NCBI GenBank assembly: GCA_963771355.1
Contig: CAVYTA010000007.1
Coordinates: forward strand, 608,001 to 672,000
Direction of reading: 5' to 3'
DNA: 64,000 nt
Source: an uncultured Candidatus Rokubacteria bacterium
Lineage (GTDB): Bacteria > Methylomirabilota > Methylomirabilia > Rokubacteriales > CSP1-6
A program made the translations under genes and the position numbers. How positions within the stretch are numbered: the stretch's first letter is position 1; each line of letters starts with the position of its first letter. Positions 4,488 through 20,275 of the stretch are shown in pieces. The notes under the pieces are model-generated. The model had not been told where the DNA came from. It saw nothing but the letters and a program-made list of their open reading frames with translations, and searched no databases.

Positions 4488-4617
4488 ACCGGGTCGCTCC
4501 GCCTTACCGGGTCGCTCTTGCCCGGTGGCGGCCGCGTGACGGCGCCATACTCGTCCCCGCGCGGCGAATACGGGGTGATTTCGGCACCTTGAGCCCCGCC
4601 GGTCGTACCACCTCTTC

Positions 4618-4632
4618 CGGCACGCTCCTTGC
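4618..4632 (+). promoter_or_regulatory. sigma54 -24/-12 promoter
   Basis: CGGCACGCTCCTTGC (GG-N10-GC) upstream of SD AAGGAGG and ATG 4665. Confidence 0.75.
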
Positions 4633-4664
4633 CCCTGAGTGGAGCAAGGAAAGGAGGCCGACCC

Positions 4665-4991
4665 ATGTTGAAGAGCATGAAGGAGTGTCTCGGCTACACG
4701 ATCCTCGCCACCGACGGCGAGATCGGGGAAGTGAGCGACTTCCTTCTCGACGACGAGCTCAAGCTCCGCTACCTCGTCATCGACACCGGGCGCTGGCTGC
4801 CCGGCAAGAAGGTGATGCTTTCCACCGCCTGGATCAGCTCGGTGGATCCTCAGAAACAAACGGTGGTCATGAACATCGACAAGAAGCGCATCGAGGAAGG
4901 CCCCCTCTACGAGAACGAGCACGTGCTCGACCGCGAGTACGAGACGCGGCTGCACGAACACTATCGGTACCCGCCGTACTGGCTGATCTGA
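4665..4991 (+). CDS. PRC-barrel domain protein
   Basis: GYTILATDGEIGEVSDFLLDD..RYLVIDTGRWLPGKKV pattern; strong SD. Confidence 0.85.
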   Translation: MLKSMKECLGYTILATDGEIGEVSDFLLDDELKLRYLVIDTGRWLPGKKVMLSTAWISSVDPQKQTVVMNIDKKRIEEGPLYENEHVLDREYETRLHEHYRYPPYWLI

Positions 4992-5004
4992 GCGGGAGGA
5001 CACC

Positions 5005-5238
5005 ATGGGACGTTGTGAGGTTTGCGGGAACGAGTACCGGAAGACGCTGGAGATCAAGTACGAGGGCCGCGTGGCCACCTTCGACTCCTTCGAATGCGCG
5101 ATTCACGCGATGGCCCCCACCTGCGAGCACTGTGGATGCCGTGTGATCGGGCATGGCGTCGAGGTGGGCGAGCGCATCTTCTGCTGCGCCAACTGCGCCC
5201 AGATGGTCGGGATCAGTGAGAAGGCCGTCAATGCCTGA
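5005..5238 (+). CDS. Small Cys-rich metal-binding protein (prokaryotic metallothionein-like)
   Basis: CEVCGN..FDSFECAIH..CEHCGC..FCCANCA; SD GGGAGG. Confidence 0.8.
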   Translation: MGRCEVCGNEYRKTLEIKYEGRVATFDSFECAIHAMAPTCEHCGCRVIGHGVEVGERIFCCANCAQMVGISEKAVNA

Positions 5239-5719
5239 GCGCGGGGCCCGCTTCGGGGGGCACCCGGTCCATCCGGCCCTGGTGAGCCTCCCCATCGGGC
5301 TCTGGATCTTCTCCCTGGCCGCCGACGTCGTGCGAGGGCTGGGGGGCGGCCCCGTCTGGCGAGACCTGGCGCTGTACACCCTCGGCGCCGGGATCGTGGG
5401 CGCGCTGATCGCCGCCGTGCCGGGCTTCATCGACTACTTGTCGATCACCGACGCTCGGGTGCGTGACATCGCGGTCGCCCACATGGTGACCATGCTCGTC
5501 GTGCTCGGCGTCTTCGCGTCCAGCTTCTGGCTCCGCTGGATCGGCACCCTGAGCGCCCTGCCGGTGGCCTTGTCGGTCCTCGGCGTGGCCCTCCTCGGCG
5601 TCGGCGCCTGGTTGGGGGGCGAGATGGTCTTTGTCCACGGTCAGGGGATGGCCGCCCATCCCCGCCGGAAAATCGACTCACGTGAAGAGACGGGCCCCCC
5701 GCGAAGCCGGGCCGCCTGA
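5231..5719 (+). CDS. DUF2231-type membrane protein
   Basis: GHPVHPALVSLPIGLW, four hydrophobic segments, GAWLGGEMVF; overlaps upstream stop. Confidence 0.8.
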   Translation: MPERGARFGGHPVHPALVSLPIGLWIFSLAADVVRGLGGGPVWRDLALYTLGAGIVGALIAAVPGFIDYLSITDARVRDIAVAHMVTMLVVLGVFASSFWLRWIGTLSALPVALSVLGVALLGVGAWLGGEMVFVHGQGMAAHPRRKIDSREETGPPRSRAA

Positions 5720-5730
5720 GAGGAGACCGC

Positions 5731-6475
5731 ATGCAGGCCGAAATCGCAGCGCAGAACGACCGGGGCCGAGAGGTGAACATCGGGCAGATCGAGCGTGTGG
5801 CTTCCGTCGGCCTGGGAGCGGCGCTGGTGGTGGTGGGGCTGGCGCTGCGGTCGCGCCGGGGCCTGGGTCTCGCGCTCACCGGTGCCGGCATGGCCTATCG
5901 AGGCCTCGGCGGGCGGTGCCTCGTGTACCGGGCGCTGGGGATCCACGGCGCCAGCGGCAAGCCCACGGCGACCGGCAATCTCGGCGTGAAGGTGGAGCGC
6001 TCGGCCCCCATCGACGCGCCCCCGGAGAAGCTCTACGCCTTCTGGCGTGACTTCCGGAACCTGCCCATCGTCATGCCCAATCTCGAGCGCGTGGAGGTGC
6101 AGTCGGACACACGCTCCCACTGGGTGGTGAAGGGGCCCCCTCGGCACCGCGTTCGAGTGGGACGCCGAGATCATCAACGACGTGCCCAACGAGCGCATCG
6201 CCTGGCGGACGACGGAGGGCGCGCGCGTGGAGCACGCCGGCTCGGTGCGCTTCGAGCCGCGCCCGGATGGCGGCACCATGGTGTGGGTCGCCCTGCAATA
6301 CAACGCCCCGGGCGGCGAGTTCACCCACATGGTGTCCAAGCTCTTCGGGGAGGATCCGGGGAAGCGGCTGGAAGAGGATCTCGAGCGGCTGCGAGAGGCG
6401 TTCGGACGGGCTCACGAGGACCGTGACGGGCTGCAGCCGAAGACCGCCGACGCCCTGGGGTATCGATCGTCCTGA
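5731..6475 (+). CDS. DUF2892/YgaP-like membrane region + SRPBCC (cyclase/dehydrase) protein; +1 frameshift in C-run 6136-6140
   Basis: NIGQIERVAS..GRCLVYRALGI; LYAFWRDFRNLP..SHWVVKGP then, after removing one C, LGTAFEWDAEIINDVPNERIAW..GSVRF. Confidence 0.8.
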
Positions 6476-6566
6476 CCTATTGACGGTCGCGCATCGGGGG
6501 CGGCCGGCCGGGTAAAAATAGATCTAGACACGGGGGCTAGAGTAAAGACAGGTGCCCCCGTTGACG

Positions 6567-7658
6567 ATGCCACCGGCCCGCCGCTCCCGCCCCCGCGTCC
6601 TTGCGATCGTGCTGGCATTGACGCTCGGGCTGGGCCTGGTAGGGGCCGCGGGCTCGCTCCATGCCGAGCGCGAGCCGCTGCGGGGCGTGGTCGAGTCCCG
6701 TCCCGCCGACGCCCCCCGCACCCGCACGGTTTTCCGCAACCAGGATCCGCACTTCACGCGCGGACCGTTCTTCACCCGGCTTCAGACCTTCGCCACCGGC
6801 ATGACCTGGCTCATCGCCGAGACTCGGGTGGCGGCGCTGCCCTCCGCGCGTCCGGACCTGGAGCGCCTCCGGTCCGCGGGAGGGGCACCCAGCGTCACCT
6901 GGGTCGGGCACGCCACGGTGCTCGTCCAGCTCGACGGCGTGACCTTTCTCACCGATCCCACCTGGAGCGACGTCTCGGGGCCCTTCGGGGTCATCGGCGT
7001 GAGCCGCTACACGCCGCCCGGCGTCCGCTTCGAGGACCTGCCGCGGATCGATTTCGTCCTCATCTCGCATGACCACTACGACCACCTCGACGAGGCCACC
7101 GTGAAGCGGCTGGCCCAGACCTTCAACTCGCGCTTCATCGTGCCGCGGGGGATCGGGGCGTGGCTGCGCGACCGGGGCATCACCAATGTCGAGGAGATGG
7201 ACTGGGGCGAGCGCACGCGCATCAAGGGGCTCACCGTGGTGTGCACGCCCGCCCAGCACGGCTCGGGCCGCACGCTCGTCGATCAGGGCCGGCGTCTCTG
7301 GTCCTCCTGGGCGGTGCTCGGGTCCAAGCGCTTCTACTTCGGGGGCGACACCGGCTACTTCGCACATTTCCGCGAGACCGGCGATGCGCTGGGGCCCTTC
7401 GACCTGGCGGCGCTCCCCATCGGCTCCTACACGCCGCGCTCGACTTCGCGCGCCGTGCACTTGAATCCCGAAGAGGCGCTCCAGGCCTGGGAAGATCTTC
7501 GCGCCCGCGAGTTCCTGGGCATCCACTGGGGGACGTTCACGCTCGCCCGCGAGCCGTATGACGAGCCCCCGGCCCGCATCGCTGCCGAAGTGGCACGGCG
7601 AGGCCTTCCCGCCGAGCGTATCTGGGTGCCCAAGCCCGGTCTCACCCTCGACTGGTAG
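6567..7658 (+). CDS. MBL-fold metallo-hydrolase (NAPE-PLD/RomA-like), signal peptide
   Basis: TWVGHAT, ISHDHYDHLD, PAQH, FGGDTGY, LPIGSY, IHWGTF. Confidence 0.88.
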   Translation: MPPARRSRPRVLAIVLALTLGLGLVGAAGSLHAEREPLRGVVESRPADAPRTRTVFRNQDPHFTRGPFFTRLQTFATGMTWLIAETRVAALPSARPDLERLRSAGGAPSVTWVGHATVLVQLDGVTFLTDPTWSDVSGPFGVIGVSRYTPPGVRFEDLPRIDFVLISHDHYDHLDEATVKRLAQTFNSRFIVPRGIGAWLRDRGITNVEEMDWGERTRIKGLTVVCTPAQHGSGRTLVDQGRRLWSSWAVLGSKRFYFGGDTGYFAHFRETGDALGPFDLAALPIGSYTPRSTSRAVHLNPEEALQAWEDLRAREFLGIHWGTFTLAREPYDEPPARIAAEVARRGLPAERIWVPKPGLTLDW

Positions 7659-7668
7659 TCGAAGTCTC

Positions 7669-7684
7669 TGGCAGCCCCCTTGCA
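7669..7684 (+). promoter_or_regulatory. sigma54 -24/-12 promoter
   Basis: TGGCAGCCCCCTTGCA (GG-N10-GC), intergenic, upstream of SD GGGGAGGT and ATG 7744. Confidence 0.7.
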
Positions 7685-7743
7685 GTGCTCTCTCTGATGG
7701 TCGGAATCTGCCTTTCATTTCTGATCAATAGGGGAGGTGCATT

Positions 7744-8097
7744 ATGGCGAAGGAAAAGCAGCCTGAACGCGCCGATCTTGGCCCCGACGATGGGAGCGTA
7801 GGCTTCGCACCCGACCGGGATGGCTTCGGAGGAACTGAGCCGCCCAGACCGGACGCCGCCATCCTCCGCGACATCGTCGAGCGGATCGGCCGGCACCCCG
7901 AGCTCGATTCCGGCGGCTGCGAGATCGTGGTGAAGAAGGGCGAGGTGCGGCTGGCGGGCGTGGTGCCGAGCGGGGATGCTCGGCGGCAGATCGAGGATCT
8001 CTGCCTGTCCGTGTCCGGGGTCTGGGAATGCGAGAACGGACTGCGAGTGCGCCGGGGCGCTACGTCAGGCGGCCGAGTGGACCCAGATCGAGGTTGA
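7744..8097 (+). CDS. BON domain protein (no signal peptide)
   Basis: PDAAILRDIVERI..EIVVKKGEVRLAGVV..SVSGVWECENGLRV. Confidence 0.75.
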   Translation: MAKEKQPERADLGPDDGSVGFAPDRDGFGGTEPPRPDAAILRDIVERIGRHPELDSGGCEIVVKKGEVRLAGVVPSGDARRQIEDLCLSVSGVWECENGLRVRRGATSGGRVDPDRG

Positions 8098-8152
8098 GCT
8101 CCTCGGGGGCGCGGCGACCTGCCTCCGCAGCGCGAAGGCCCCTGTTATCGGG

Positions 8153-8551
8153 TCAACGAGTGGAGGCATCCACGATCCGGGTGAGGGCCGAGACGCTCCG
8201 ATCGAGCACGTCGGCGGCCTGATGGACCGTGGCGGGGTTCTCGGCATGCTCGCGGAGCACGCCGATCCACCCGGCGATGGCGTTGAGCGGCGTGCGGAGG
8301 GCGTGCGCGAGGAGCTCGCGATCGTCTTCCGCCGAGCGAATCAGGATGTCGAGATCGGCCTGGAGCGCACGGAGGCGGTGGGCGATCGGGTCCGTCTCGT
8401 GACCGCCCGGTGCCCTGTCTTCGAACTCGGCGGCCAGGTGCTGCAGCCCGGACCGGACATCATCAAGGATGGCCTGCCGAGCCGAACGCGGCCCATCGGC
8501 CGCGCTGGGAACGGGCTCGGCTTCTCGAGGAATCACGTGAGGGCGTGCCAT
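8153..8551 (-). CDS. Stand-alone HisKA (DHp) domain protein, no HATPase domain
   Basis: LAHALRTPLNAIAGW H-box followed by a second helix (QAADVLDRSVSALTRIVD); ends 55 bp from a convergent gene; has its own sigma54 promoter motif. Confidence 0.72.
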   Translation of the reverse strand: MARPHVIPREAEPVPSAADGPRSARQAILDDVRSGLQHLAAEFEDRAPGGHETDPIAHRLRALQADLDILIRSAEDDRELLAHALRTPLNAIAGWIGVLREHAENPATVHQAADVLDRSVSALTRIVDASTR

Positions 8552-8566
8552 GCGTCCCGCGCCAGG

Positions 8567-8582
8567 TGCAACTGACGTGCCC
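8567..8582 (-). promoter_or_regulatory. sigma54 -24/-12 promoter for the DHp-only gene
   Basis: Minus strand GGGCACGTCAGTTGCA. Confidence 0.75.
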
Positions 8583-8609
8583 GCCTCGTTCTGAATTATT
8601 AGTAAGAAC

Positions 8610-8622
8610 AGTCAAGCAGTTA
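8610..8622. promoter_or_regulatory. Putative IHF site
   Basis: AGTCAAGCAGTTA, one mismatch to WATCAANNNNTTR, next to an AT-rich tract (8591-8609) and just upstream of the sigma54 promoter. Confidence 0.5.
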
Positions 8623-8725
8623 CGTGAAGGGGCCAGGGAAGAAATCACCCGGCACCCCTATTTGGGGTGTGTAAGAACTTCCCCGGAGCCTTGCGCTAAG
8701 CCACGGGGTTCGGCAAAATTGGGTC

Positions 8726-10081
8726 ATGACCCGTGTGCTCGTCGCAGACGACGACCAAGACTCATGTCAGGCGCTGTCGGCCCTTCTCTCCGGATGGGGC
8801 TACGAGGTGGCAGAGGCGGCGGATGGGAACGAAGCGCTGGACCGGGCCATTGTGTTCCGCCCGTCGCTGATCGTCACCGACCTCGTGATGCCCGGGATGG
8901 ACGGGCTCGCCTTGCTCAAGGCCCTTCGCGTCGAACTACCCGCCTCCACCGTGATCGTCCTCACCGGCCATGCCACCATCGAGACCGCGGTGGCGGCCAT
9001 GCGGGATGGCGCCTACGACTACCTCCCCAAGCCGGTGGACCTTCGGCGGCTCCGCGCCCTGGTGGACAAAGCACTCGAGCAGTCCCAGGTGCTCCGCGAG
9101 GTGACGCTCCTCCGCCGCCAGCTCGGCGGCACCCAGGCCATGGGGACCCTGATCGGGGCGAGCGAGCCCATGCAGGAGATCTATAAGACCATCGAGCAGG
9201 CGGCCTCGACCTCCGCCCCGGTCCTGATCTCGGGAGAGAGCGGCACCGGCAAGGAGCTGGCTGCGCGCACCATTCACTCGCTTTCCGTCCGGGGCAAGGG
9301 GCCGTTCGTGGCCATCAACTGCGGGGCCGTCCCGGAGACCCTGCTCGAGAGCGAGCTCTTCGGCCACGAGCGGGGCGCCTTCACCGGTGCGGTGGAGCGG
9401 CGCGCGGGCTATTTCGAGCTCGCGGACGGGGGCACGCTGTTCCTGGACGAGATCGCCGAGATGAGCGGGGCGCTGCAGGCCAAGTACCTGCGCGTGCTCC
9501 AGGACGGCGTGGTGCGCCGCCTCGGCGGGCGGGCGGAGCTGAAAGTCGACGTGCGCATCATCGCCGCCACGAACCGGGACCCGCGGGAGTCCATCAAGCA
9601 GGGGGCGTTCCGGGAGGATCTCTACTACCGGCTCAACGTGTTCAGCTTCACGATGCCGCCCCTCCGCGTGCGCAAGGGGGACATCCCGCTCCTCGCCGAG
9701 GCCTTCGTGACGGAGTTCGTCGGCAAGTACGACCGCGCGGCCAAGGGACTCAGCGCGGAGGCGCTGGATAGGCTGGGCCGGCACCGCTGGCCCGGCAACG
9801 TGCGCGAGCTGCGGAACTGCATCGAGCGCGCGGTGGTGGGCTGCACCAGTGCCGAGCTCACGGCCGACCTGCTGCCGCTTGATCTCCCGCTGCTCCCCGA
9901 GCCGGCCGGGGCGACGGCGCCTTCGCCTCCGCCCCTGAGCCTCGACGAAGCCGAGCGTCTCCACATCTTGCGCACGCTCGCGGCACTGGGGAGCAACAAG
10001 ACGCGGACAGCGGAGAGCCTGGGCATCAGCCTCAAGACCCTCCACAACAAGCTACGCCGGTATCGCGAATCGCCGGGCTGA
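8726..10081 (+). CDS. sigma54-dependent response regulator (NtrC/AtoC family: REC-AAA+-Fis HTH)
   Basis: VLVADDD..TDLVMPGMDG; GESGTGKE; ESELFGHERGAFTGA; LFLDEI; WPGNVREL; NKTRTAESLGISLKTLHNKL. Confidence 0.95.
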   Translation: MTRVLVADDDQDSCQALSALLSGWGYEVAEAADGNEALDRAIVFRPSLIVTDLVMPGMDGLALLKALRVELPASTVIVLTGHATIETAVAAMRDGAYDYLPKPVDLRRLRALVDKALEQSQVLREVTLLRRQLGGTQAMGTLIGASEPMQEIYKTIEQAASTSAPVLISGESGTGKELAARTIHSLSVRGKGPFVAINCGAVPETLLESELFGHERGAFTGAVERRAGYFELADGGTLFLDEIAEMSGALQAKYLRVLQDGVVRRLGGRAELKVDVRIIAATNRDPRESIKQGAFREDLYYRLNVFSFTMPPLRVRKGDIPLLAEAFVTEFVGKYDRAAKGLSAEALDRLGRHRWPGNVRELRNCIERAVVGCTSAELTADLLPLDLPLLPEPAGATAPSPPPLSLDEAERLHILRTLAALGSNKTRTAESLGISLKTLHNKLRRYRESPG

Positions 10082-10101
10082 GACGCCCGGGCCGTCCGCC
10101 G

Positions 10102-12087
10102 CTACCGGAATATCCCGCGGAACCACTGGAAGATGTCCTTCACCACCGGGGCATCCGCGAAGAGCTCGCGCTCACAGGGCGGCGGCTCGCTGCCCTGTCG
10201 GAAGGCCTCGTTGATCGCCCCGTCGCTCCCGCACGCGCGGCGACCGGTGCCCGACTCCACCGACGCCATGACGATACCGGGCGGCGTGGTGAATGGGCGG
10301 GGTGGGGCCCGGCGCACGGCGGCCTGCATCACGGTGGCCCAGATGGGAAGCGCGATGTCCGAGCCCGTCATCCCGATGGATCGGCCGTCGTCGGCGCCCA
10401 CCCAGACGCCCACCACCAGGTCCGGCGTGTACCCGATGAACCAGGCATCGCGCAACCCGTCCGTGGTTCCGGTCTTGCCCGCCGTCACTTCCTGAAGCCC
10501 CCAGCGTGCGCTCGATCCGCCCGTGCCACGCCGCATCACTCCGCGGAGCATATGGGTCACGATGAACGCCGATTCCGCGGACACCGCGCGATCGGGGCGC
10601 GGCTGTTCGCGCAGCGTCGCCTGCGGACCCGCGTCATCGAGTGTGGTCGGCCGCACCCGGAGGCCACCGTTGGCCAGGGTCGCGAAGGCGGTGGTCATCT
10701 CCAGAAGGGTGACCTCGGACGTCCCCAGCGCCAGAGAGGGCACCGCGGCGAGCCGGCTCTCGATGCCCATGGCCCCCGCCACCTGCACGACCTGCCGCAT
10801 GCCGACCGCTTGCCCGACCAGCGCCGCCGGCACGTTGAGCGAGTCCTCGAGGGCGCGGCGTATGGTCACCGGGCCGCGGAACTGTCCGTCGATGTTGTGG
10901 GGCGACCAATCGCCCCCGACGGCGGGAATGACGATGGGCTCATCGGAGACCACGCTGGCGGCCGTGAGGCGGTCGCCCCGTGACTCGAAGGCGGCCAGAT
11001 AGACGAGGGGCTTGAACAGCGAGCCCGGCTGGCGCCGCGCCTTCACCGCGTGGTTGAACTCGCTCGTCGTGTAGTGCCGCCCGCCCACCAGGGTGCGGAC
11101 CCGGCCGGTGCCCGGCTCCATCGCGATCACCGCCGCCTGGAGCGTCCCCGAGCGCAGACCCTTCCGGGAGCGCTCGGCCCTCGCCAGCTGATCGCGGACC
11201 GCCGCCTCCGCGATCTCCTGGAGCGAGCGATCGAGGCTGGTGGTGAGGCGCCCGCCCGGCACGCCGCCGACCAGCCGGCGGGCGGTCTCCTCGCGCGCCA
11301 GCTCGATGAACCAGGGCGCGCGCGACGGCGGCGCGGTGGGCGGGCGGAGCGGGCGCGCCATCGCGAGCTTTGCGTCAGGCTCCGTGGCAACGCCCTGCGC
11401 CACCATGGCGTCGAGCACGCGGTCGCGGCGGACGCGAACGAGGGTGGGTTCGTCCGAGTACACCCGATTCGGGGCCCGAATGGCCGCGGCCAGCAGCGCA
11501 GCCTCGTCGAGCCGGAGGGCGGAGATGTCCTTGCCCAGGAGGTGGCGTGCGCCCGCCGCCACGCCCAGCACGGCGGCGTCGCGCTCCTGCCCCAGATAGA
11601 CGGTATTGAGGTACGTCTCGAGGATGCGCTCCTTGCTATAGCGCATCTCCAGCAGCAGGGCGATCGCGACTTCCCGCACCTTTCGGGTCCAGGTGCGCTC
11701 CCGGGTCAGGAAGAGACCACGGGCGAGCTGCTGGGTGATGGTGCTCGCTCCCCGGACCACCTCCCCGCCGCGCGCATTGTGAACGGCGGCCCGCGAGACA
11801 GCGAGGAGATCCACGCCGAGGTGGTTCATGAAGCGGCGGTCCTCCGCCGCGATCACCGCGCCGACCACGACGGGCGGCATCTGGTCGAGCGGGAGCCAGA
11901 TCTGATAGCGGCCGTTCAACCCATGAAAGGTGGCGATCTCACGGCCCTGCGCGTCCAGGTACACGACGGGCAGGCTCGCTTCGCTCCCGTCGGGGAGGGG
12001 GTAGGACCACCAGCCCCACGCCAGGACGAACACCGCGACACTGGCCACGACCGCGAGAGAGAGAAGCGCGACGTATCGAATTCGCAC
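10102..12087 (-). CDS. Class A penicillin-binding protein (transglycosylase/transpeptidase)
   Basis: EDRRF, GASTITQQL, RKVRE, YLNTVYLG; SLFK (SxxK), SLN, KTGT. Confidence 0.93.
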   Translation of the reverse strand: MRIRYVALLSLAVVASVAVFVLAWGWWSYPLPDGSEASLPVVYLDAQGREIATFHGLNGRYQIWLPLDQMPPVVVGAVIAAEDRRFMNHLGVDLLAVSRAAVHNARGGEVVRGASTITQQLARGLFLTRERTWTRKVREVAIALLLEMRYSKERILETYLNTVYLGQERDAAVLGVAAGARHLLGKDISALRLDEAALLAAAIRAPNRVYSDEPTLVRVRRDRVLDAMVAQGVATEPDAKLAMARPLRPPTAPPSRAPWFIELAREETARRLVGGVPGGRLTTSLDRSLQEIAEAAVRDQLARAERSRKGLRSGTLQAAVIAMEPGTGRVRTLVGGRHYTTSEFNHAVKARRQPGSLFKPLVYLAAFESRGDRLTAASVVSDEPIVIPAVGGDWSPHNIDGQFRGPVTIRRALEDSLNVPAALVGQAVGMRQVVQVAGAMGIESRLAAVPSLALGTSEVTLLEMTTAFATLANGGLRVRPTTLDDAGPQATLREQPRPDRAVSAESAFIVTHMLRGVMRRGTGGSSARWGLQEVTAGKTGTTDGLRDAWFIGYTPDLVVGVWVGADDGRSIGMTGSDIALPIWATVMQAAVRRAPPRPFTTPPGIVMASVESGTGRRACGSDGAINEAFRQGSEPPPCERELFADAPVVKDIFQWFRGIFR

Positions 12088-12100
12088 GAGCTAGGACAGG

Positions 12101-12115
12101 GCAAGACTGGTGCCG
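12101..12115 (-). promoter_or_regulatory. sigma54 -24/-12 promoter for the PBP gene
   Basis: Minus strand CGGCACCAGTCTTGC, 13 nt before GTG start. Confidence 0.72.
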
Positions 12116-12199
12116 AGAGTCGCGTGACGCCAAGTATGGGAAAGATCAAGCCTCGGCATCGTAACCGGCGCAGTGGCCCTCACGAGAGAGTAAGAGATT

Positions 12200-12217
12200 C
12201 CCGGTAGCCCTTACCAG
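12200..12217. promoter_or_regulatory. Candidate enhancer (UAS) GGTA-N5-TACC
   Basis: CCCGGTAGCCCTTACCAG, 14/18 identical to the 16379/20385 element, between divergent sigma54 motifs. Confidence 0.55.
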
Positions 12218-12288
12218 GCTTCCCTGGCCCTCACGCGTGCGGAGGCATGTTTCGCCAGCACGACGCGAGCTTGCGGCCGGCCGCCGAT

Positions 12289-12304
12289 GGGCGTGCCTCT
12301 TGCA
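12289..12304 (+). promoter_or_regulatory. sigma54 -24/-12 promoter-like motif
   Basis: GGGCGTGCCTCTTGCA (GG-N10-GC, perfect TTGCA). Confidence 0.55.
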
Positions 12305-12317
12305 GACATCTGGGGGC

Positions 12318-12470
12318 ATGAGCGCCTTAGAGCGTCGACCGCCACCGCCTCCACAGCCGCCGCCGCCCCCGGGACCCCCCGAGCCGCCGCCACCTCCGTC
12401 GCCTCCCCCGCCGCCGGTGGTCGAATACTTCAGCCCCGCCGGGATCTGCGTGGCCAGTACCTGGCGGTGA
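12318..12470 (+). CDS. Putative 50-aa proline-rich small protein
   Basis: MSALERRPPPPPQPPPPPGPPEPPPPPSPPPPPVVEYFSPAGICVASTWR; ATG about 3 nt after the predicted sigma54 TSS. Confidence 0.4.
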   Translation: MSALERRPPPPPQPPPPPGPPEPPPPPSPPPPPVVEYFSPAGICVASTWR

Positions 12471-12699
12471 GTCGCGGCGCCAGAATCCACGCCGCGCCCG
12501 CCAGCAGCAGCGCGAGCGCGAATCCCCCCGTCTGACGAGCGGGAAGCCAGGTCCAGCCCGCGAGGGCGTGCCGGCGACGATCGAGCTCGGCCACCAGATC
12601 GTCGAGCCGCTCCCGGACCCCCGAGATCTCCTCTCCGAGTGCGCTGACGCGGTCCCCGGCGCCGTTGGCTTCCACTACGCGAGTCGTTCCTTCGCCCAT
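12430..12699 (-). CDS. Small coiled-coil/TM protein (DUF3618-like partner of holin-family genes)
   Basis: EEISGVRERLDDLVAELDRRRH + TM segment; overlaps upstream holin-like gene end. Confidence 0.6.
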   Translation of the reverse strand: MGEGTTRVVEANGAGDRVSALGEEISGVRERLDDLVAELDRRRHALAGWTWLPARQTGGFALALLLAGAAWILAPRLTARYWPRRSRRG

Positions 12700-14141
12700 T
12701 GCAGGTCCTCCTTGACGGTCTTGCGCGTGAGATCCAGCGGTGCCTGCACGCGGCGGCTCCAGGCCACCGCCCCCAGGACGGCGGCCACGACCAGCAGCAG
12801 CCCGCCCAGGGCCAGCGCGGCGACCCAGGCCGGCAGCCAGGCGGCCAGCGCGAGGACGGCGGCCATCAGCAGCAGATTGAGCGCGAGCAGGGCCAGAAGC
12901 GCCGCGGCGCCGAACAGCTTGACCATGCCGAGCGCGGCGTGGAAATCCTCGTCGAGCTCGGCGCGCGCCAGCTCTACCTCTTTATGGATGAGGACGGAGC
13001 TGAGGCCGACGATGCGGCGCATGAGCGCCACCGTGGAGAGCGCCCGCGGATTGTCCGCCGGCGCCGTGGTCACCGGGGTGGGGGCCATCGAAGGTGCCAT
13101 GATGTTGTCCTTTCCGAGTAGACGCGCCTCCAGCAGCTGCGGCCGGCCGGCCAGCGCCCGGTCGAGCTGCAGTATCTGCCGATAGACGACCTGCCACTCA
13201 TCGAACGGGAGCGGCCGCTCTGCCATCTCGGCCGTGATCGCATCGAGCCGTGAGCGGAGCGCCCAGGCATTGCGGTGCGCCTCCGGATCTCGCCGGTAGG
13301 CCGCCCACACTCGCTGGATCTGGCGCTCGATGTCCTGCGCCTCCGCGGTGACGGACTGGAACATGTCGGGCCGCCCGCTGAGCGCCTCCACCACCAGCAC
13401 GTGGACGCGCGCGGATGCCTCGACGGGGCCCCGCAGCAGCAGCGCGTTCGGATACAGCGCCAGCTCGAGCTCGCCGGCACGGAAATAGGCGGACTCGGCG
13501 GTGAGGAGGCCGGAGAGCGCGCTGCCCCCGATGCGCGTGAGGATGCGCGTGGGCAGCGCGCTCCACCAGGGCGGGCTCAGGGCCACCACGGAGATGCCAT
13601 GGCGGCGCAGCGTCTCGGCGACCAGCGCCGCCGCGGCGGGGTACGACTCGGACGTGGTCACCAGCGGCACGTGGACGTCCCGGTGTCCACGGAGCGCCGA
13701 GGCCACGCGCAGGACGGGGACGGTGACCAGGAGGACGAGAAAGGCCAGGGCCAGCCCTGCGGTGATGGGGAATCCGCGCAGGATGCTTTGGAAGAGACCC
13801 GGGCGCATTGCCCCTTTCTCCGCGGGCGGCGGTCGCAGCCCGACGCCAATCGAGATCGGGACGGCTAGCGCCAGCGCGATCCAGCCCAGGCGGACGAGCC
13901 ACGCGGGTAGAGCGTCCGGCAGCGGCACGAAGGCGAGGAAGAAGGCCGCGGCCTTGGGCGCCGCCACGCCGATCAAGAGCAGCGGCCAGGCGGCGGCCGA
14001 CGCCACCAGTCCCGACAGGAGCATCCGGCGTCGTCCGCTCACGCGGCCGAAGAGCGCCACCACCGCCCAGTCGAACAGAGCGGTGAGGATCTTCCCCACC
14101 GACCGGCTGATGAGGCTGAGGATGGCCTGGATCAGCGCCAT
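12675..14141 (-). CDS. Membrane protein with C-terminal phage-holin-family (YqjE-like) domain
   Basis: MALIQAILSLIS.. multi-TM N-terminus; C-terminus LIHKEVELARAEL..AWVAALALG..TVKEDLQWAKERLA; internal SD+ATG at 13100. Confidence 0.72.
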   Translation of the reverse strand: MALIQAILSLISRSVGKILTALFDWAVVALFGRVSGRRRMLLSGLVASAAAWPLLLIGVAAPKAAAFFLAFVPLPDALPAWLVRLGWIALALAVPISIGVGLRPPPAEKGAMRPGLFQSILRGFPITAGLALAFLVLLVTVPVLRVASALRGHRDVHVPLVTTSESYPAAAALVAETLRRHGISVVALSPPWWSALPTRILTRIGGSALSGLLTAESAYFRAGELELALYPNALLLRGPVEASARVHVLVVEALSGRPDMFQSVTAEAQDIERQIQRVWAAYRRDPEAHRNAWALRSRLDAITAEMAERPLPFDEWQVVYRQILQLDRALAGRPQLLEARLLGKDNIMAPSMAPTPVTTAPADNPRALSTVALMRRIVGLSSVLIHKEVELARAELDEDFHAALGMVKLFGAAALLALLALNLLLMAAVLALAAWLPAWVAALALGGLLLVVAAVLGAVAWSRRVQAPLDLTRKTVKEDLQWAKERLA

Positions 14142-14151
14142 GCGGGGCCCG

Positions 14152-15168
14152 TCAGGACTTCTTGCGCCGTCGCCGCGCCTCCCCGCGCCGCTTGCCGCGC
14201 GGGGCGCGGAGCGTCCGGAGCTGGGGGAGAATCTCCTCGGCGTAGAACTCGAAGAAGGCCTTCTGCTCCCGGCCGACCTGATGTACGCAGATGTGGTCGT
14301 AGCCCGCGTCGGCGTACTTGCGAATGGCGGCCAGATGCCGCGCGGGATCCGGTCCGCAGGTGATGGACTCCGCCACCTGCTCCTCGGTGACGAGCTCCGC
14401 CACCGACTCGAAGTGGGCGGGCAGCGGAAGCTCCCACGAGAGGTTACTTTCCATGGCGGAGGTGGGCCACTGCTCACGCGCGGTCCGGCGAGCGGTGGCC
14501 TCGTCCTTGGCATAGCAGACGGTCAGCTCCGCGTACCTTGGCTTGCCGGCCCCGCCCGCCTCGTCGAAGGCGGTCAGGAGCGAGGGATCCGGATCGGTGC
14601 CGATGACCCCGTCACCCAGACGGCCGGCCTGCTCGGCGCTGCGCGGGCCGCCCGCCGCCACGAAGAGTGGTGGCAGTACGTCGGGCAGCGTGTAGAGACG
14701 CGCGTTTTCCACCGTGAAGTAACGTCCGTGATGGCTCTGATTGCCCCCCTCCCAGAGCTGGCGGATCACTCCGATGGCTTCCTCCAGCCGCTCCTGCCGT
14801 ACCTCGGTCTCCGGCCATCCCTGCCCCACCACGTGCTCGTTCAGGTTCTCGCCCGTTCCCACGCCGAGGAAGAATCTCCCCGGCATGAGGGCCGCCGCGG
14901 TCGCGGCGGCCTGCGCGACGATGGCCGGATGCAGGCGCGTGGTGGGACAGGTAACCGCGGTACCGAGGGTCAGGCGCTGGGTCGCGTGGGCGATGGCGCC
15001 GATGACGCCCCACACGAAGGGACTCTGACCCTGCTTGTCGATCCAGGGGTGATAGTGGTCGGAGATGAGCGCGAAGCCGAAGCCCGAGTCCTGCGCCATC
15101 TGCGCATAGCGGACCAGGTCCAGCGGCGACTGCTCCTCGCTCGAGAGCTTGTAGCCGAGACTCAGCAT
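14152..15168 (-). CDS. F420-dependent LLM-class oxidoreductase (G6PDH-like family)
   Basis: GYKLSSEE, ISDHYHPW, GTAVTCP, GVGTGENLNEH. Confidence 0.88.
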   Translation of the reverse strand: MLSLGYKLSSEEQSPLDLVRYAQMAQDSGFGFALISDHYHPWIDKQGQSPFVWGVIGAIAHATQRLTLGTAVTCPTTRLHPAIVAQAAATAAALMPGRFFLGVGTGENLNEHVVGQGWPETEVRQERLEEAIGVIRQLWEGGNQSHHGRYFTVENARLYTLPDVLPPLFVAAGGPRSAEQAGRLGDGVIGTDPDPSLLTAFDEAGGAGKPRYAELTVCYAKDEATARRTAREQWPTSAMESNLSWELPLPAHFESVAELVTEEQVAESITCGPDPARHLAAIRKYADAGYDHICVHQVGREQKAFFEFYAEEILPQLRTLRAPRGKRRGEARRRRKKS

Positions 15169-15172
15169 GCTG

Positions 15173-15862
15173 CTAGCCGCCATTGCGCCGAAGGGCTGCG
15201 ATGCGATCGTCGGTGGCGGGATGGGTCGAGAAGAAGCCGCCCTCGCTTCCGCCCTCGGTCTGGAGCAGCCAGGTCAGCGTCTCTTCCATCACCTTCGGGG
15301 AATGCCCGGCGCGCTTGAGGAGCTCCGCCCCGTGCGCGTCGGCCTGGTACTCCTCCTGGCGGCCGTACGCCCGGGAGATGAGGGTGCCCGCCACCGGGGC
15401 GAGCTGACCGCTGCCCGGAATGATCTGATCGAGAATCACCATGCCGATGGCGACGCCCGTCTGCACGCGCTGCTGCTTGGCCACGTGGCGCAGGTCGTCA
15501 TGGGCCACCTCGTGGGCGAGGACGCCGGCCAGGTGCTGGTCATTGGCCTTGCGCAGGAGGCCGGTGGTGACGAGGAACTGCCCGTCGCCGGCGCTGCCCG
15601 CGTTGACGCGATCGTCGTCTACGATGGCGACCTTCACTTGATTCAGGGGCCGCTTGTTGTCGGCAGCCTGAAGGAGAGGCAGCATCACCCGCTTCAGCCG
15701 CTCGGCCTGGGCGGGATCGATGCGCGCGGTGGAGGACCGCGGCGCGCTCGCGGTGGGATTCCCGCCGCTCGACGACGACGGCGGGGCGGGGCTGGACACT
15801 GGCGCCGCGCAGGCGGCGGCGAGGGAGAACGCGGCGAGGAGCGCAGTGAGGGTGGTTTTCAT
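15173..15862 (-). CDS. M48-family Zn metalloprotease, probable lipoprotein
   Basis: LAAAC lipobox-like; VLAHEVAH; EYQAD; FSTHP. Confidence 0.85.
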   Translation of the reverse strand: MKTTLTALLAAFSLAAACAAPVSSPAPPSSSSGGNPTASAPRSSTARIDPAQAERLKRVMLPLLQAADNKRPLNQVKVAIVDDDRVNAGSAGDGQFLVTTGLLRKANDQHLAGVLAHEVAHDDLRHVAKQQRVQTGVAIGMVILDQIIPGSGQLAPVAGTLISRAYGRQEEYQADAHGAELLKRAGHSPKVMEETLTWLLQTEGGSEGGFFSTHPATDDRIAALRRNGG

Positions 15863-15867
15863 GGCGG

Positions 15868-16194
15868 CTACCCGCTCGTCTTCACGGAGAGATTGTTGAC
15901 CACCGCATTCACACCCTTCACGCTCCAGGCGATGTTCGAGGCGCGCTGCTTCATCTCCTGGCTGTCGACGAGCCCGTTGAGATAGACGGTCCGATGATTC
16001 GTGTCGACATCTACCTTGGTGAGGGTCGACACCTTCTCGGCGGCAAGCTTGGCCTTGACCTGGGTGGTGATGGTGGCGTCGTCGACGCTCTCCCCGGCGG
16101 TCTTGGCCACGCCGGAGGAGCAAGCGGCCAGGACCAGCATCGCCAGCAAAGCGACGGACAGCAGTCTCAGATCTCTCAGACGTAGCATGGCCAT
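15868..16194 (-). CDS. BON domain lipoprotein (OsmY-like)
   Basis: LAAC lipobox; DDATITTQVKAKL..VKGVNAVVNNL; SD AGGAG. Confidence 0.88.
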   Translation of the reverse strand: MAMLRLRDLRLLSVALLAMLVLAACSSGVAKTAGESVDDATITTQVKAKLAAEKVSTLTKVDVDTNHRTVYLNGLVDSQEMKQRASNIAWSVKGVNAVVNNLSVKTSG

Positions 16195-16257
16195 TTTCTC
16201 CTTTTCTTCGTCTCGTTCTTCTGGAGCGTGACTTGAGGCGCTATGGCCACTCTCCGG

Positions 16258-16272
16258 GCAAGTGATGTGCCA
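16258..16272 (-). promoter_or_regulatory. sigma54 -24/-12 promoter
   Basis: Minus strand TGGCACATCACTTGC (consensus). Confidence 0.85.
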
Positions 16273-16378
16273 GACCGGCCCGCGAGCGAGGGACCGGCGA
16301 AGCGAGCGGAATCGTTGCCGCCGCGCAGTCGGATGGAGGCGAACTTCGTTACATAGCAGCGGGGAAAAGCGTTCTTCG

Positions 16379-16396
16379 GCCGGTAGTCCTGACCCG
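16379..16396. promoter_or_regulatory. Candidate enhancer (UAS), copy 1
   Basis: GCCGGTAGTCCTGACCCG, identical to 20385-20402, about 105 bp from each of two divergent sigma54 promoters. Confidence 0.65.
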
Positions 16397-16498
16397 GCTT
16401 CCTTTGGCAGTGCGCTCCGCTGGACCAGCAACTGCACATCGCCCGCCTTATCCGGGCGCTCCGGGCGACACCCCAGACCAATAGGGAGGGCAACTCGC

Positions 16499-16513
16499 TG
16501 GCACTGTGATTGC
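16499..16513 (+). promoter_or_regulatory. sigma54 -24/-12 promoter
   Basis: TGGCACTGTGATTGC (consensus). Confidence 0.85.
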
Positions 16514-16561
16514 GTGCTCCGGAACCCGTGCGCACCGCTTAGAAAAAGGGAGATCAAGGTC

Positions 16562-16884
16562 ATGGACAGGAAGAAGAGGGAGTCGAAGCAGACAGACGAC
16601 GACCAGTCGCGCGAACCTGGCCGTCATCCCCAGGCGCCAGAGCCCGAGCACCGGCACCCGGATTCGAATCGTCCTGACACGCTCCGACCGGGCCCCGGTC
16701 AGCGAGAGTCGGCCGCTGAGCGAGAGTCGAAGCAAGGGGCGCGTCAGGGCGACGAGAGCCAGGTGGCGAGCGCGGAGCTGGACGACGAAGACGACGAGGA
16801 CGATAGACGACGAGAGACGACGATGACGATGACGACAGCGACGACGTGGACACCGACGACGAGGTAAGGGCGGCTCGGCCGTGA
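16562..16884 (+). CDS. Highly charged, acidic disordered protein (hydrophilin-like); apparent frameshift at about 16805-16815
   Basis: MDRKKRESKQTDDDQ..DDEDDEDD; the GAC/GAT run continues in another frame as DDDDDDDSDDVDTDDEVRAARP*. Confidence 0.6.
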
Positions 16885-16895
16885 GGAGGAAAGTC

Positions 16896-17261
16896 ATGAA
16901 GACCTGGCCGAGTCGAGCATTTCGCGCGATGGGACTGGGAGTCGTCCTTGGGGCGGCGGCGTTCATGGGGCTGGGACCCCTGGCGCCGCCGCCGGCCTGG
17001 GCCGAGCCGGAAGTGGCGATCATCGAAACCCGCGCTGCTCTCGAGGATGAGTCCAGCGACGGCGTCAATGCGGCACTCAGAAAGGCGCTGGAGAAGGCGA
17101 TCCGGGGTGCCGCCGCCATGGGGCTTGGCCAGGTGCGGATCAACAGCGCCTATCGGGGGCCGAGCTTCGTCGTGATCCAGATCCTCGCGACCACCGAGAC
17201 GGAGGGCGAGACGAGCGCGGGGCCCCGGGTCGGCGAGGCCACGCCGGGCAACCGGTTCTAG
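16896..17261 (+). CDS. Hypothetical secreted protein
   Basis: SD GAGGAGG; signal peptide ending AWA-E. Confidence 0.7.
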   Translation: MKTWPSRAFRAMGLGVVLGAAAFMGLGPLAPPPAWAEPEVAIIETRAALEDESSDGVNAALRKALEKAIRGAAAMGLGQVRINSAYRGPSFVVIQILATTETEGETSAGPRVGEATPGNRF

Positions 17262-17296
17262 CAAGTATCGCGAACGGTATCACCGGGGCTGAGGGA

Positions 17297-19168
17297 TCAG
17301 CGTGCCTCCTCCGGTACGGAGGACAGCTCGGGCCAGGAGGAGCGAGACTCCGCCGCGGCGGGGTCCTCCGGGCGGGCGGCGAGCCGCAGGGCCGCCGCAC
17401 GGGCCTTGATGAGCGACGTGACGAACGCGTCGGCTCCCGCGGCGCGGAGCGCGCGACGCCTCGCGGCAGTTCGCGCGACGCCGCACTGATAGACGAGGAT
17501 GGGTGTGTCCGGCGCCGCCTCGCGCAGCCGCTTCACGAGGTGGCGCAGGCGGCGGCCGCCGCCAGGACCGACGGCGCCGACGCAGACGAGGGCGGCGCCC
17601 GCTGCCTGGAGCGCGCCGACTGTCTCCACCGAAGGCGGACCCGGGGGAACGACGTGCACGAGGAAGCCGGCGGGGGTGAGCAGTCGTCCCAGCATGGCCA
17701 GCGCCGTCTCGTCCACCGCGTCACGAAGCGGCACCGCGGCCACCACCGTGGCGGCCGTCATCGAATCCGGCGCGCCCGCGGGCGCGGCCGGCGCATCGGC
17801 GGGCTCATACTCCACCAGCTTCCGGGTGACCTCCACGATACGCGCGTACTCCGCGCGCGAGAGCTGGCGCGCGAGCCGGTCGCGACGGGCGCGCGCGAGG
17901 GCGGGCAAGACCAGAGTGTCGAAGGCCGTCTCCAGGGAGGATGCCTTCACCGCCTCTGTCATCAGATCCGCCGCCTCGTTCTCGTCCCCGGCCAGCAGCC
18001 GCTGATAGAGGGTGACCGACGGCTTCACGCCTGAGTCGTCGCTCAGCAGGATCCCGATGAACTCGAGCCCGTCGACCGTCCGCGCGAAGACGACGAGGAG
18101 CACGGTCAAGGGCGTGGAGAGAACCAACCCAATTGGTCCCCACAGCCAGGTCCAGAAGGCGGCGCCGACCAGGAGCGCGAGCGCGGACACCCCGGCGCTC
18201 CAGCTGAAGAGCAGTGGCTCGAGCACGAAGGCCACGGTCACCTCGGTGACGATGAAGAGCCCCATGATGAGCAGCGGCCTGGTCCAGCCGTCGAAGACGG
18301 CCAGGCTCAGCATGATGGGAAGGAGCGCGGCCACCCACGCGCCGACGTAGGGGATGAAGCGCAGCATGCCCGCGAAGAAGCCGAGGGCAAGCGCGAAGGG
18401 CACGCCGAGGAGGTAGAGGCCCACGCCGATAGCGAGGCCGAAGCTTCCGTTGATGAGGGATTGCATGAGGAGGTAGCGGCTGATCCGATTGCCCGCCTCG
18501 TCGAGGAGCCGCGTGGTCGTCGCCAGATGGTGATGGCCGAAGAGTCGCACCACGCGCGCCCGGAGCTCTCGCTGCTGGATGAGGACGAAGAAGAGGAGAA
18601 CGATGACCAGGGTCGCCGAGCCGAGCGCCTCGAGCAGGTTCGGGATCGACCACAGCGCAGGCGAGGAGACCACCACCGGCACCGGCTTCTCGGCGCCGGG
18701 ATCGGGGGGGGTGCTTTTCTCGATTTGCTTCATGACGTCCTTGGCGGTGGCTTCCATCTTCTCCAGCGTCCCGCCGCGCCGCGCCTGCTGGATGTCCGAG
18801 ATCTTGCGGGTGATGGTCACCCGGTACTTCGGCAGCTCATTGGCGAGCGTGGCGATCTGAGCGGTGAGGGCCCAGCCCAGCGCGGCCGCGACGAGGAGGG
18901 CGAACAGGCCGACGGTCACCGCCGCCGGCACCCGCGGTAGGCCCCAACGCCGCAGGAGGTTCACCAGCGGAGTGAGGAGAAAGGCGAGCAGCAGCGCCAG
19001 CGCGACGGGGATCGCGACCACGCGCGCCCAGTAGAGACAGGCCACCGTCAGGACCATCCCGGCCAGGACGACGAAGCGCCGGCTGACGGCGGGGGTGGAG
19101 CGCGGGTGCCGCGGTGGCCGTCCGGCGCGCGGGCGCGCCGGCCCCCCCGCGGCACCCGCCCGGCTCAC
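17297..19168 (-). CDS. AI-2E family transporter with C-terminal cytoplasmic extension
   Basis: IPVALALLLAFLLTP, ISRYLLMQSLIN, LRFIPYVG, WTWLWGPIGLVLSTPLT, YQRLLAGD. Confidence 0.88.
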   Translation of the reverse strand: MSRAGAAGGPARPRAGRPPRHPRSTPAVSRRFVVLAGMVLTVACLYWARVVAIPVALALLLAFLLTPLVNLLRRWGLPRVPAAVTVGLFALLVAAALGWALTAQIATLANELPKYRVTITRKISDIQQARRGGTLEKMEATAKDVMKQIEKSTPPDPGAEKPVPVVVSSPALWSIPNLLEALGSATLVIVLLFFVLIQQRELRARVVRLFGHHHLATTTRLLDEAGNRISRYLLMQSLINGSFGLAIGVGLYLLGVPFALALGFFAGMLRFIPYVGAWVAALLPIMLSLAVFDGWTRPLLIMGLFIVTEVTVAFVLEPLLFSWSAGVSALALLVGAAFWTWLWGPIGLVLSTPLTVLLVVFARTVDGLEFIGILLSDDSGVKPSVTLYQRLLAGDENEAADLMTEAVKASSLETAFDTLVLPALARARRDRLARQLSRAEYARIVEVTRKLVEYEPADAPAAPAGAPDSMTAATVVAAVPLRDAVDETALAMLGRLLTPAGFLVHVVPPGPPSVETVGALQAAGAALVCVGAVGPGGGRRLRHLVKRLREAAPDTPILVYQCGVARTAARRRALRAAGADAFVTSLIKARAAALRLAARPEDPAAAESRSSWPELSSVPEEAR

Positions 19169-19266
19169 GGCCAGTTACCGGGAAGAAAGTCGAGCAGGAA
19201 CGCGATGGCCGCCAGGACAAGGACGAGGAAGACGTGGACGCCGGGTGGCTGCCGAAGGGTCAGCAT
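19165..19266 (-). CDS. 33-aa single-TM small protein (not in ORF track)
   Basis: MLTLRQPPGVHVFLVLVLAAIAFLLDFLPGNWP; SD GAGGGA; TGA overlaps GTG start of the AI-2E gene (GTGA). Confidence 0.6.
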   Translation of the reverse strand: MLTLRQPPGVHVFLVLVLAAIAFLLDFLPGNWP

Positions 19267-19274
19267 GGTGTCCC

Positions 19275-19607
19275 TCACCCTTTCTTCTGGACGATGAGAT
19301 GGTTGACGACGCCGTTCACGTGAGTGACGCTCCAGGCGATCTCGGCCGCGCGCTGGCGCGTCTCCTCGCTGTCCACCACGCCGGTCAAGTACACGGTGCG
19401 CAGGTTGGTCTCCACCCCCACGCGGGTGAGGGTGGCGAGCTTCTCGGCGGCGAGCCGGCTCTTCACCGCCGCGGTGATCTGCGCGTCATCCGCGTTCTCG
19501 CCGGCAGTCTGGCCGGTCAGGGACGAGCAGGCCGCCAGCAGGGTCACCAGCGCCAGCAGGGTGAGCGTCGCGAACGGGGACCGAGATCGCCGGGACCGCG
19601 GGCGCAT
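19275..19607 (-). CDS. BON domain lipoprotein (paralog of 15868-16194)
   Basis: LAAC lipobox; DDAQITAAVKSRLAAEK..VNGVVNHL. Confidence 0.88.
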   Translation of the reverse strand: MRPRSRRSRSPFATLTLLALVTLLAACSSLTGQTAGENADDAQITAAVKSRLAAEKLATLTRVGVETNLRTVYLTGVVDSEETRQRAAEIAWSVTHVNGVVNHLIVQKKG

Positions 19608-19609
19608 CG

Positions 19610-20200
19610 TTATTTCCTCGGTTCCCCGAGCTGCTCGAGGAGGGTCTTGAGCTCGTCGGCGTGCTCCTCCTCGTTGCCGAGCACACCCTCGAGCATGCGC
19701 CGGGTGGTCGGATCGCCCTCGCCCACGAACCGGATCATCTCCAGGTACGACTCGATGGCAATGCGCTCTGCCACCAGGTTCTCTCGAATCATGTCCACGA
19801 GGTCTCCGCCCTCCACGTACTCGCTGTGGCTGCGCGTGGCCAGGCCCTCGGGGGAGAAGTCGGGCTCCCCGCCGAGCTGCACGATGCGCTTGGCGATCTT
19901 GTCCGCGTGGCCCTGCTCCTCGGTGGCGTGCTTCATGAATTCCTCGGCGACCGCCTGGGCGTGGATTCCCGCCGCCATGAAGTGATGCCGGCGGTAGCGG
20001 AGCACGCAGATGAGCTCGGTGGCGAGCGCGGTATTGAGGAGGCGGATGACCGCCTCACGATCCACCTGGTGGCTCTCGGTCACGGCGCCGTCATCCATGT
20101 GCTCGCGGGCCCGCCGACGCAGCTCCTTCACGTCGGACAGGAAGTCCCCGCCGCCTCCCTCCTGCCCCTTCCCCTTGTCGCGCATGTCCCCAGTTTTCAC
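19610..20200 (-). CDS. Ferritin-like / bacterioferritin-family protein
   Basis: ALATELICVLRY, EEQGHAD, ENLVAERIAI, EEEHAD; SD AAGGAG before GTG. Confidence 0.88.
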   Translation of the reverse strand: MKTGDMRDKGKGQEGGGGDFLSDVKELRRRAREHMDDGAVTESHQVDREAVIRLLNTALATELICVLRYRRHHFMAAGIHAQAVAEEFMKHATEEQGHADKIAKRIVQLGGEPDFSPEGLATRSHSEYVEGGDLVDMIRENLVAERIAIESYLEMIRFVGEGDPTTRRMLEGVLGNEEEHADELKTLLEQLGEPRK

Positions 20201-20260
20201 GTCGCGCTCCTTTTGGGTGTTCGAGCTCCGGCCGTTCGCGTCCAGACAGACGATCGAACG

Positions 20261-20275
20261 GCAAACCCCGTGCCA
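20261..20275 (-). promoter_or_regulatory. sigma54 -24/-12 promoter
   Basis: Minus strand TGGCACGGGGTTTGC (consensus). Confidence 0.85.

Follow-up and report, generated by a model that had tools for sequence, protein, structure and literature searches.

A stand-alone DHp protein beside an NtrC-type activator in Rokubacteria: a candidate inducible brake with reciprocal H-box losses in two clades

What can the DHp domain of a histidine kinase do when it is encoded alone? The question is raised by a 64,000-nucleotide stretch of DNA from an uncultured Candidatus Rokubacteria bacterium (the window), where a short ORF carrying LAHALRTPLNAIAGW lies between the gene for an NtrC-type regulator and a convergent BON-domain gene. 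The genes concerned and the H-box are:

8153..8551, minus strand: DHp-only protein, 132 aa (ORF call, Pfam)
8291..8305, minus strand: H-box codons His83 (8303-8305), Ala84 (H+1), Leu85, Arg86 and Thr87 (H+4)
8726..10081, plus strand: NtrC-type activator with REC, sigma-54 AAA+ (GAFTGA) and Fis-type HTH domains; putative partner
7669..8097, plus strand: BON-domain gene (7744-8097), convergent with the DHp gene and preceded by a sigma-54 motif of its own (7669-7684)

The first-pass annotation had described a 132-aa ORF with neither sensor nor HATPase domain, and Pfam agrees: HisKA (PF00512) alone is above its cut-off, matching residues 81-128 with an E-value of 1.1e-7 and 32.3 bits (cut-off 26.9). 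No Pfam sensor or HATPase family matched the protein, and the Hpt profile (PF01627) matched neither the protein nor the locus. AlphaFold2 (mean pLDDT 84) predicts helices at residues 19-46, 55-101 (the long helix that holds His83) and 106-131, preceded by 18 variable residues. The chain stops with DHp helix 2, and HATPase_c is absent from it. The predicted hairpin superimposes on the DHp domain of HK853 at 1.2-1.3 Å over ~60 residues, with weak, non-significant E-values; Foldseek returned nothing at E 0.001 or better for the predicted model. The HisKA score, the invariance of the histidine (see below) and the HK853 overlay together identify a DHp domain with a His at the phospho-acceptor position. 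As modelled, the gene product consists of a DHp hairpin on its own, preceded by one more predicted helix, and we infer that the hairpin dimerises into a four-helix bundle.

The ORF is not the remainder of a longer kinase gene. A distance of 55 bp separates its stop codon from that of the BON gene, and beyond it all three minus-strand frames run into stops, within 30, 28 and 1 codons. No ATPase domain can therefore come after it, as had been argued from the gap at first sight. Searching with the single sequence found 21 proteins, 87-139 aa long, among 103 candidates, and a profile search gave 90 matches among 8000 candidates with a gap between E 8e-15 and 8e-12. The matches above this gap, the query and four genome-derived copies make up a 66-row family that includes some near-duplicates. 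All 66 proteins (87-139 aa) end 4-11 residues past the position of Asp128. A FastTree phylogeny of the DHp region places 37 family rows in a single clade (support 95), separate from 52 kinase rows; with 79 columns this is modest evidence. A search for longer relatives yielded one match among 3023 candidates, an ordinary kinase. The shared C-terminal end, the monophyly, the lack of a long relative and the closed frames rule out a truncated or frameshifted full kinase; relatives with a full-length kinase at this position, which the annotation had named as fatal to its proposal, did not turn up, all being short. Lack of conservation, another hazard it had stated, did not apply either to this 66-protein family. 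Compared with the same-genus genome G003, dN/dS is 0.27 for residues 21-132, 1.1 (neutral) for residues 1-20 and 0.13 for the neighbouring activator. The DHp-only ORF is a real gene under purifying selection. A 199-aa ORF antisense to it was rejected as a true gene (dN/dS 1.67 against G003, no Pfam match).

Databases label family members only as HisKA-domain protein, signal transduction histidine kinase or hypothetical protein. No account of a naturally occurring family of DHp-only proteins turned up in the literature searched, which contains few subscription journals. Twenty-seven sequences are members of the window-type cluster (P0002, 97% identical), and the records of two family loci (L105, L106) and of the top Atlas cluster are assigned to Rokubacteria/Methylomirabilota. 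A search of genome contigs gave three family members among 71 loci; the 79 loci from a metagenome search (E 1e-9 or weaker, 24-55% identity) were taken for ordinary kinases. One further locus (L104) has an archaeon in its record title, yet encodes a 74%-identical member of this bacterial family, and is likely mislabelled.

The DHp gene was found in 23 of the 251 genomes of the class: the window's own, four others of its genus (g1) and 18 of the 21 genomes of genus g46. A carrier was defined by a full-profile match of E 2e-30 or better, the next best (8e-19) being a long kinase. A wider profile again gave these 23 carrier genomes; it scored 18 candidates per genome, and distant members may escape. 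Searching for homologues next to activator genes, as the annotation had suggested, gave a uniform picture: in 23/23 carriers, which are kin rather than independent genomes and include only two of the window's clade, the gene stands beside a related NtrC-type activator, divergent from it in five and directly downstream in 18. The head-to-head regulator noted at the outset is such an activator, with REC-AAA-HTH architecture. In g1 the DHp gene diverges from the activator alone (window, G003) or from a hydrolase-activator operon (G005, G006, G007), and at all 18 g46 loci it follows the activator, with overlapping start and stop in 16. The g46 activators are ~57-59% identical to that of the window; those of g1 and g46 are different paralogues of one subfamily with a common receiver helix-1 pattern. 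Since the linkage holds in two gene orders across both genera, this activator subfamily is the constant neighbour. Three of the seven same-genus genomes (G001, G002, G004) retain the syntenic activator (74-89% identical) and lack the DHp gene there, with no strong match elsewhere in the genome. The DHp protein is therefore probably an accessory and not an obligate phosphate donor, which fits a brake. Three activators in the own genome are paralogues whose receivers and HTH motifs are similar, and the inducer and the target may therefore differ. None of the genome's 68 HATPase_c matches falls inside the window, so the statement that it contains no cognate histidine kinase holds; four kinases and one activator paralogue are encoded 9-26 kb to the left of it. 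In an alignment of the 16 full-length g46 activators (loci L205-L222), GAFTDA stands in place of GAFTGA, a variant compatible with activation (PMC4641369).

The H-box had been read as kinase-dead and phosphatase-competent, on the rule that an acidic H+1 residue serves the kinase and a Thr or Asn at H+4 the phosphatase activity. PMC3510030 gives the same rule: each residue is needed only for its own activity, and in CrdS the E372A mutant retains phosphatase activity and N375A loses it. The window protein has Ala84 at H+1, which is not acidic, and Thr87 at H+4. His, Arg(+3), Ala(+8), Gly(+11) and Trp(+12) are invariant in 66/66 rows. H+1 is Glu in 29, Ala in 22 and Asp in 15 of these (acidic in 44/66), and H+4 is Thr in 38, Ser in 13, Asn in 8 and Ala in 7. 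The Ala rows form one clade (100/98) that contains the window protein. Across its 49 distinct sequences H+4 is Asn (33), Thr (13) or Ser (3), and in a 45-row tree built without that column H+4 changes eight times, never to Ala or Val. The Asp clade (39 rows) keeps its H+1 residue, and its H+4 is Ala (15), Val (12), Thr (9) or Ser (3), crossing six times between polar and Ala/Val. Loss of both residues together occurred in none of the sequences examined. The proposed H-box reading thus stands for the Ala clade and fails as a family-wide statement, H+1 being acidic in most rows and H+4 being Ala or Val in 27/39 rows of the Asp clade. As H+4 is Ala or Val at 15 of the 18 g46 loci, phosphatase cannot be the function of the whole family, and the missing ATPase domain already makes the protein kinase-dead without any argument from H+1. 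The distinctive result is that, in a family linked throughout to one activator subfamily, one clade has lost the H+1 acid and another, reciprocally, has mostly lost H+4.

How the gene might be switched on is suggested by the DNA between it and the activator:

8567..8583, minus strand: predicted sigma-54 -24/-12 promoter, GGGCAC-N5-TTGCA at 8567-8582, near-leaderless, 15 nt ahead of the ATG
8610..8622, plus strand: IHF-like site in an AT-rich tract, one mismatch, at chance level
8636..8650, no strand: enhancer-like imperfect palindrome 1 of the GGGWAR-N3-YTWCCC type, predicted activator site
8669..8683, no strand: enhancer-like imperfect palindrome 2, also present in G002, which lacks the DHp gene

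The sigma-54 motif, already noted in the first-pass annotation, has one mismatch to the consensus; the window contains six such motifs (1.1 by chance). It is retained in G003, and all 17 g46 loci with upstream DNA have a motif before the activator-DHp operon (16 score 6/7, one 5/7); the form with G at minus 26 is common to the window, G003 and most g46 loci. No sigma-54 motif was found upstream of the DHp gene in G005, G006 and G007, which belong to the Glu clade and keep the palindrome. Sigma-54 dependence is predicted for 19 of the 22 loci that could be tested. At the sequence level the DHp gene has the marks of a sigma-54 regulon member, namely the GG-N10-GC motif and upstream enhancer-like sites, with rpoN present in the genome. 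The palindrome, defined from g1 sequences, recurs at 15/17 g46 loci; of the 187 other sigma-54 sites in the own genome, 12 have it nearby, compared with 3.5 in shuffles (maximum 8 in 100 shuffles). Downstream of the palindrome sites, 8/10 scanned proteins had Pfam matches, and the products include two single-domain receivers, a sensor-less hybrid kinase and lipid or envelope proteins. The window activator probably binds these palindromes. Matches of the IHF-like type occur at chance level (two observed, 2.16 expected), and this one is apparently not kept in G003. The genome encodes five HU/IHF-family proteins. An RNA search listed 24 runs, and contigs from four of these span the DHp gene; they also span intergenic DNA and the convergent junction and are therefore no proof of its transcription.

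Two further features of promoters were seen. The Glu-clade DHp genes (L022:9840-9875, L023, L024) have a conserved TTGACT-N18-TTTACT beside the palindrome instead of a sigma-54 motif. In the own genome, ATG is enriched 10-16 nt past sigma-54 motifs (6.3 per position, 2.8 elsewhere; 188 sites), with a peak count of 14 at offset 12, which suggests that many of its sigma-54 transcripts are leaderless; the g46 activator promoters have a similar spacing from motif to ATG.

Among known systems, the bifunctional kinases CrdS, HK853, EnvZ and NtrB share the H-box fold of their DHp domain (HisKA, PF00512) with the DHp-only protein. The H+1 Ala and H+4 Thr of the window correspond to the kinase-off, phosphatase-on signature engineered in the K-P+ mutants CrdS E372A and HK853 E261A. 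Unlike these mutants, the DHp-only protein is natural and stand-alone, has no sensor or ATP-binding domain, and is likely controlled by transcription. Isolated DHp fragments of EnvZ have phosphatase activity. Spo0B, ChpT, PhyT and PhyK resemble the DHp family in being kinase-derived proteins without autokinase activity that have a conserved His and act on receivers; the window clade differs from them in lacking the H+1 acid. Spo0B and ChpT keep an ATPase-like domain. PhyT and PhyK, which act in the general stress response, likewise keep a degenerate or intact one (PMC5898713, PMC5964349), whereas the DHp family has none. LovK-LovR is induced by the very response that it dampens as a feedback drain (PMC5964349), a role like that proposed here. 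LovKR, CheZ, CheX and RapH have different folds or are full-length kinases, and no sequence link to the DHp family was found. Spo0E is an auxiliary aspartyl phosphatase. In such phosphatases one residue with an amide or hydroxyl group can be enough for catalysis (PMC3510030). Sda and KipI are small negative regulators that act at the DHp surface (PMC8534201), but they bind a DHp domain and are not DHp proteins themselves. The DHp family belongs neither to the histidine kinases, nor to the Spo0B/ChpT/PhyT group, nor to the Hpt proteins. The opposite case, HATPase without HisKA, is described in bioRxiv 10.64898/2026.02.27.708494; further literature for comparison is found in PMC12471899.

We suggest that in the Ala clade the DHp protein acts as an inducible negative-feedback phosphatase, and give this reading a probability of roughly 45%. 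The activator would be phosphorylated by kinases encoded elsewhere, the pathway being fed by hybrid kinases with an N-A-x-x-G-W helix, and the phosphorylated activator would in turn drive the sigma-54 promoter of the DHp gene. The hairpin, probably as a dimer, would dock on the activator receiver through its invariant helix-1 face. Thr87 would then position the attacking water as in HisKA kinases and the aspartyl phosphate would be hydrolysed, its removal from the activator closing the feedback loop. We infer that the activator is the substrate. The input may come from the four hybrid kinases with N-A-x-x-(G/L)-W that are the best helix-1 matches in the own genome and are candidates also for the ancestor of the family; such comparisons, which covered 76/93 receivers and 59/62 kinases, are leads only. 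Three points call for caution. CrdS H371A retains much phosphatase activity (PMC3510030), and the invariance of His83 despite this favours chemistry at the histidine and counts against a phosphatase. In phosphatase activity the His has been assigned the role of general base, and the ATP-binding domain and ADP are stimulatory (PMC7005713); the DHp-only protein has neither of these two. Finally, PhyP/PhyT, at first put forward as a phosphatase, turned out to be a phosphotransferase (PMC5898713). Across the family the common function is likely His-centred docking on a receiver, with the Asp clade likely working as a phosphate sink or relay instead of a phosphatase. A history in which one ancient loss of the ATPase domain gave bare DHp proteins attached to the output of a sigma-54 activator, followed by specialisation of the Ala clade as a stand-alone HisKA phosphatase and of the Asp clade as a His sink or relay, is a tentative proposal, which we regard as rather unlikely in this complete form.

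Alternatively, His83 may itself accept phosphate and the protein would be a minimal Spo0B/ChpT-like phosphotransferase or sink between receivers, whether of hybrid kinases, single-domain receivers or the activator. The unbroken conservation of the histidine and the prevalence of acidic H+1 residues are what such a role would require, and the Asp clade, which retains H+1 and loses H+4, points the same way. The own genome is rich in hybrid kinases and all four of its Hpt matches lie in frames of at least 946 aa, none being stand-alone. PhyK and PhyT are precedents (PMC5964349, PMC5898713), and an operon of RsbR/S/T with two hybrid kinases converges on the DHp gene at 7/18 g46 loci. However, the H+1 acid that makes the His more nucleophilic (PMC7005713) has been lost from the window clade, typical HisKA kinases transfer phosphate one way, from His to Asp (PMC5231405), and an obligate relay is at odds with the three same-genus genomes that keep the activator alone. 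For the window protein we therefore consider a sink or relay unlikely, if still a serious competitor to the inducible phosphatase.

Doubtful to a greater degree is a non-catalytic block, by which the protein would occupy the kinase-docking face of the receiver or form dead heterodimers with kinases of like helix. Invariant Leu89, Ala91, Gly94 and Trp95 lie on the docking half of helix 1, whereas H+1, H+4 and H+5 each vary; the similarity of this helix to that of the four hybrid kinases is consistent with heterodimers, and PhyT binds unphosphorylated PhyR (PMC5898713). An H+4 strictly confined to Thr/Asn/Ser in the Ala clade, together with a His that never varies, suggests chemistry instead, and the extra N-terminal helix, predicted to pack on the stalk, may disfavour heterodimers.

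A different partner is suggested by the neighbourhood of the gene in g1. In four of the five carriers (G003, G005, G006, G007) it heads a gas-vesicle operon, and the kinase and receiver encoded there are therefore rival partners; the window copy would then be a recently orphaned member of the cassette. The DHp gene and the operon are both absent from G001, G002 and G004. The own genome has no gas-vesicle match, and the BON gene of the window sits where these relatives have the operon. Against this, gas-vesicle genes occur in 0/21 g46 genomes, yet 18 of these have the DHp gene in an activator operon, and ~50 other genomes of the taxonomic family have gas-vesicle genes without it. A recent orphan also fits poorly with the 27 sequences in the window-type cluster and with RNA-run contigs that join the DHp gene to the BON gene in near-identical strains. 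We regard this partnership as improbable. Least credible, and largely refuted, is the view that the ORF is what decay has left of a full kinase, or that it shadows the antisense ORF: the gene is less constrained than the activator, is neutral over its first 20 residues and has been lost in 3/7 same-genus genomes, but the common C-terminal end, monophyly, absence of a long relative and conserved promoter speak against decay, and the dN/dS of the antisense frame and its lack of a Pfam match against a shadow.

If the feedback reading is true, a DHp hairpin without any nucleotide-binding domain would be a natural, dedicated phosphatase or sink timed by transcription. If the two clades have indeed divided the chemistry as proposed, they would form a separation-of-function series found in nature, and two-component signalling would have a minimal off-switch timed by transcription. 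The natural variants at H+1 and H+4 (Ala with Thr or Asn, Glu with Thr, Asp with Val or Ala) share one scaffold. They open to direct test whether HisKA phosphatase activity requires the His, and what lets a DHp domain transfer phosphate backwards. The protein would also be a small part for tuning synthetic two-component circuits, and its regulation would give the outline of a probable sigma-54 stress network in a lineage of uncultured soil bacteria.

Several observations on the surroundings were made in passing. Behind the DHp gene, the gas-vesicle loci (L021:10256-18766, L022, L023, L024) encode gvpJ, gvpA, a PAS kinase, a receiver, gvpF/L, an ArsA-like ATPase and gvpK, and gas-vesicle genes are present in 54/159 genomes of the taxonomic family. 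The g46 loci at which the RsbR/RsbS/RsbT stressosome-like operon with its hybrid kinases converges on the activator-DHp operon are L205, L210, L211, L212, L214, L219 and L220; at the last of these (L220:7932-9032) the DHp gene is directly followed by a 366-aa ORF that appears, from its start, to be transposase-like. About 9 kb to the left of the window (G000 C7:597674-598906; L276:375-1604) a sensor-less hybrid kinase with HisKA-HATPase-REC architecture has Lys at H+1 and Asn at H+4 and is preceded by a sigma-54 motif and two palindromes of the same type, which makes it a further candidate for a phosphatase-biased feedback component. Within the window, positions 4600-20400 form a stress-type island with three BON genes, a ferritin-like gene, a PRC-barrel gene and an AI-2E transporter, and hold five of the window's six sigma-54 motifs. 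An SRPBCC/YgaP-type gene at 5731-6475 is split over two frames (5731-6426, 6182-6475) by a frameshift or an assembly error; it is likewise split in L234 and intact in L235 and L236.
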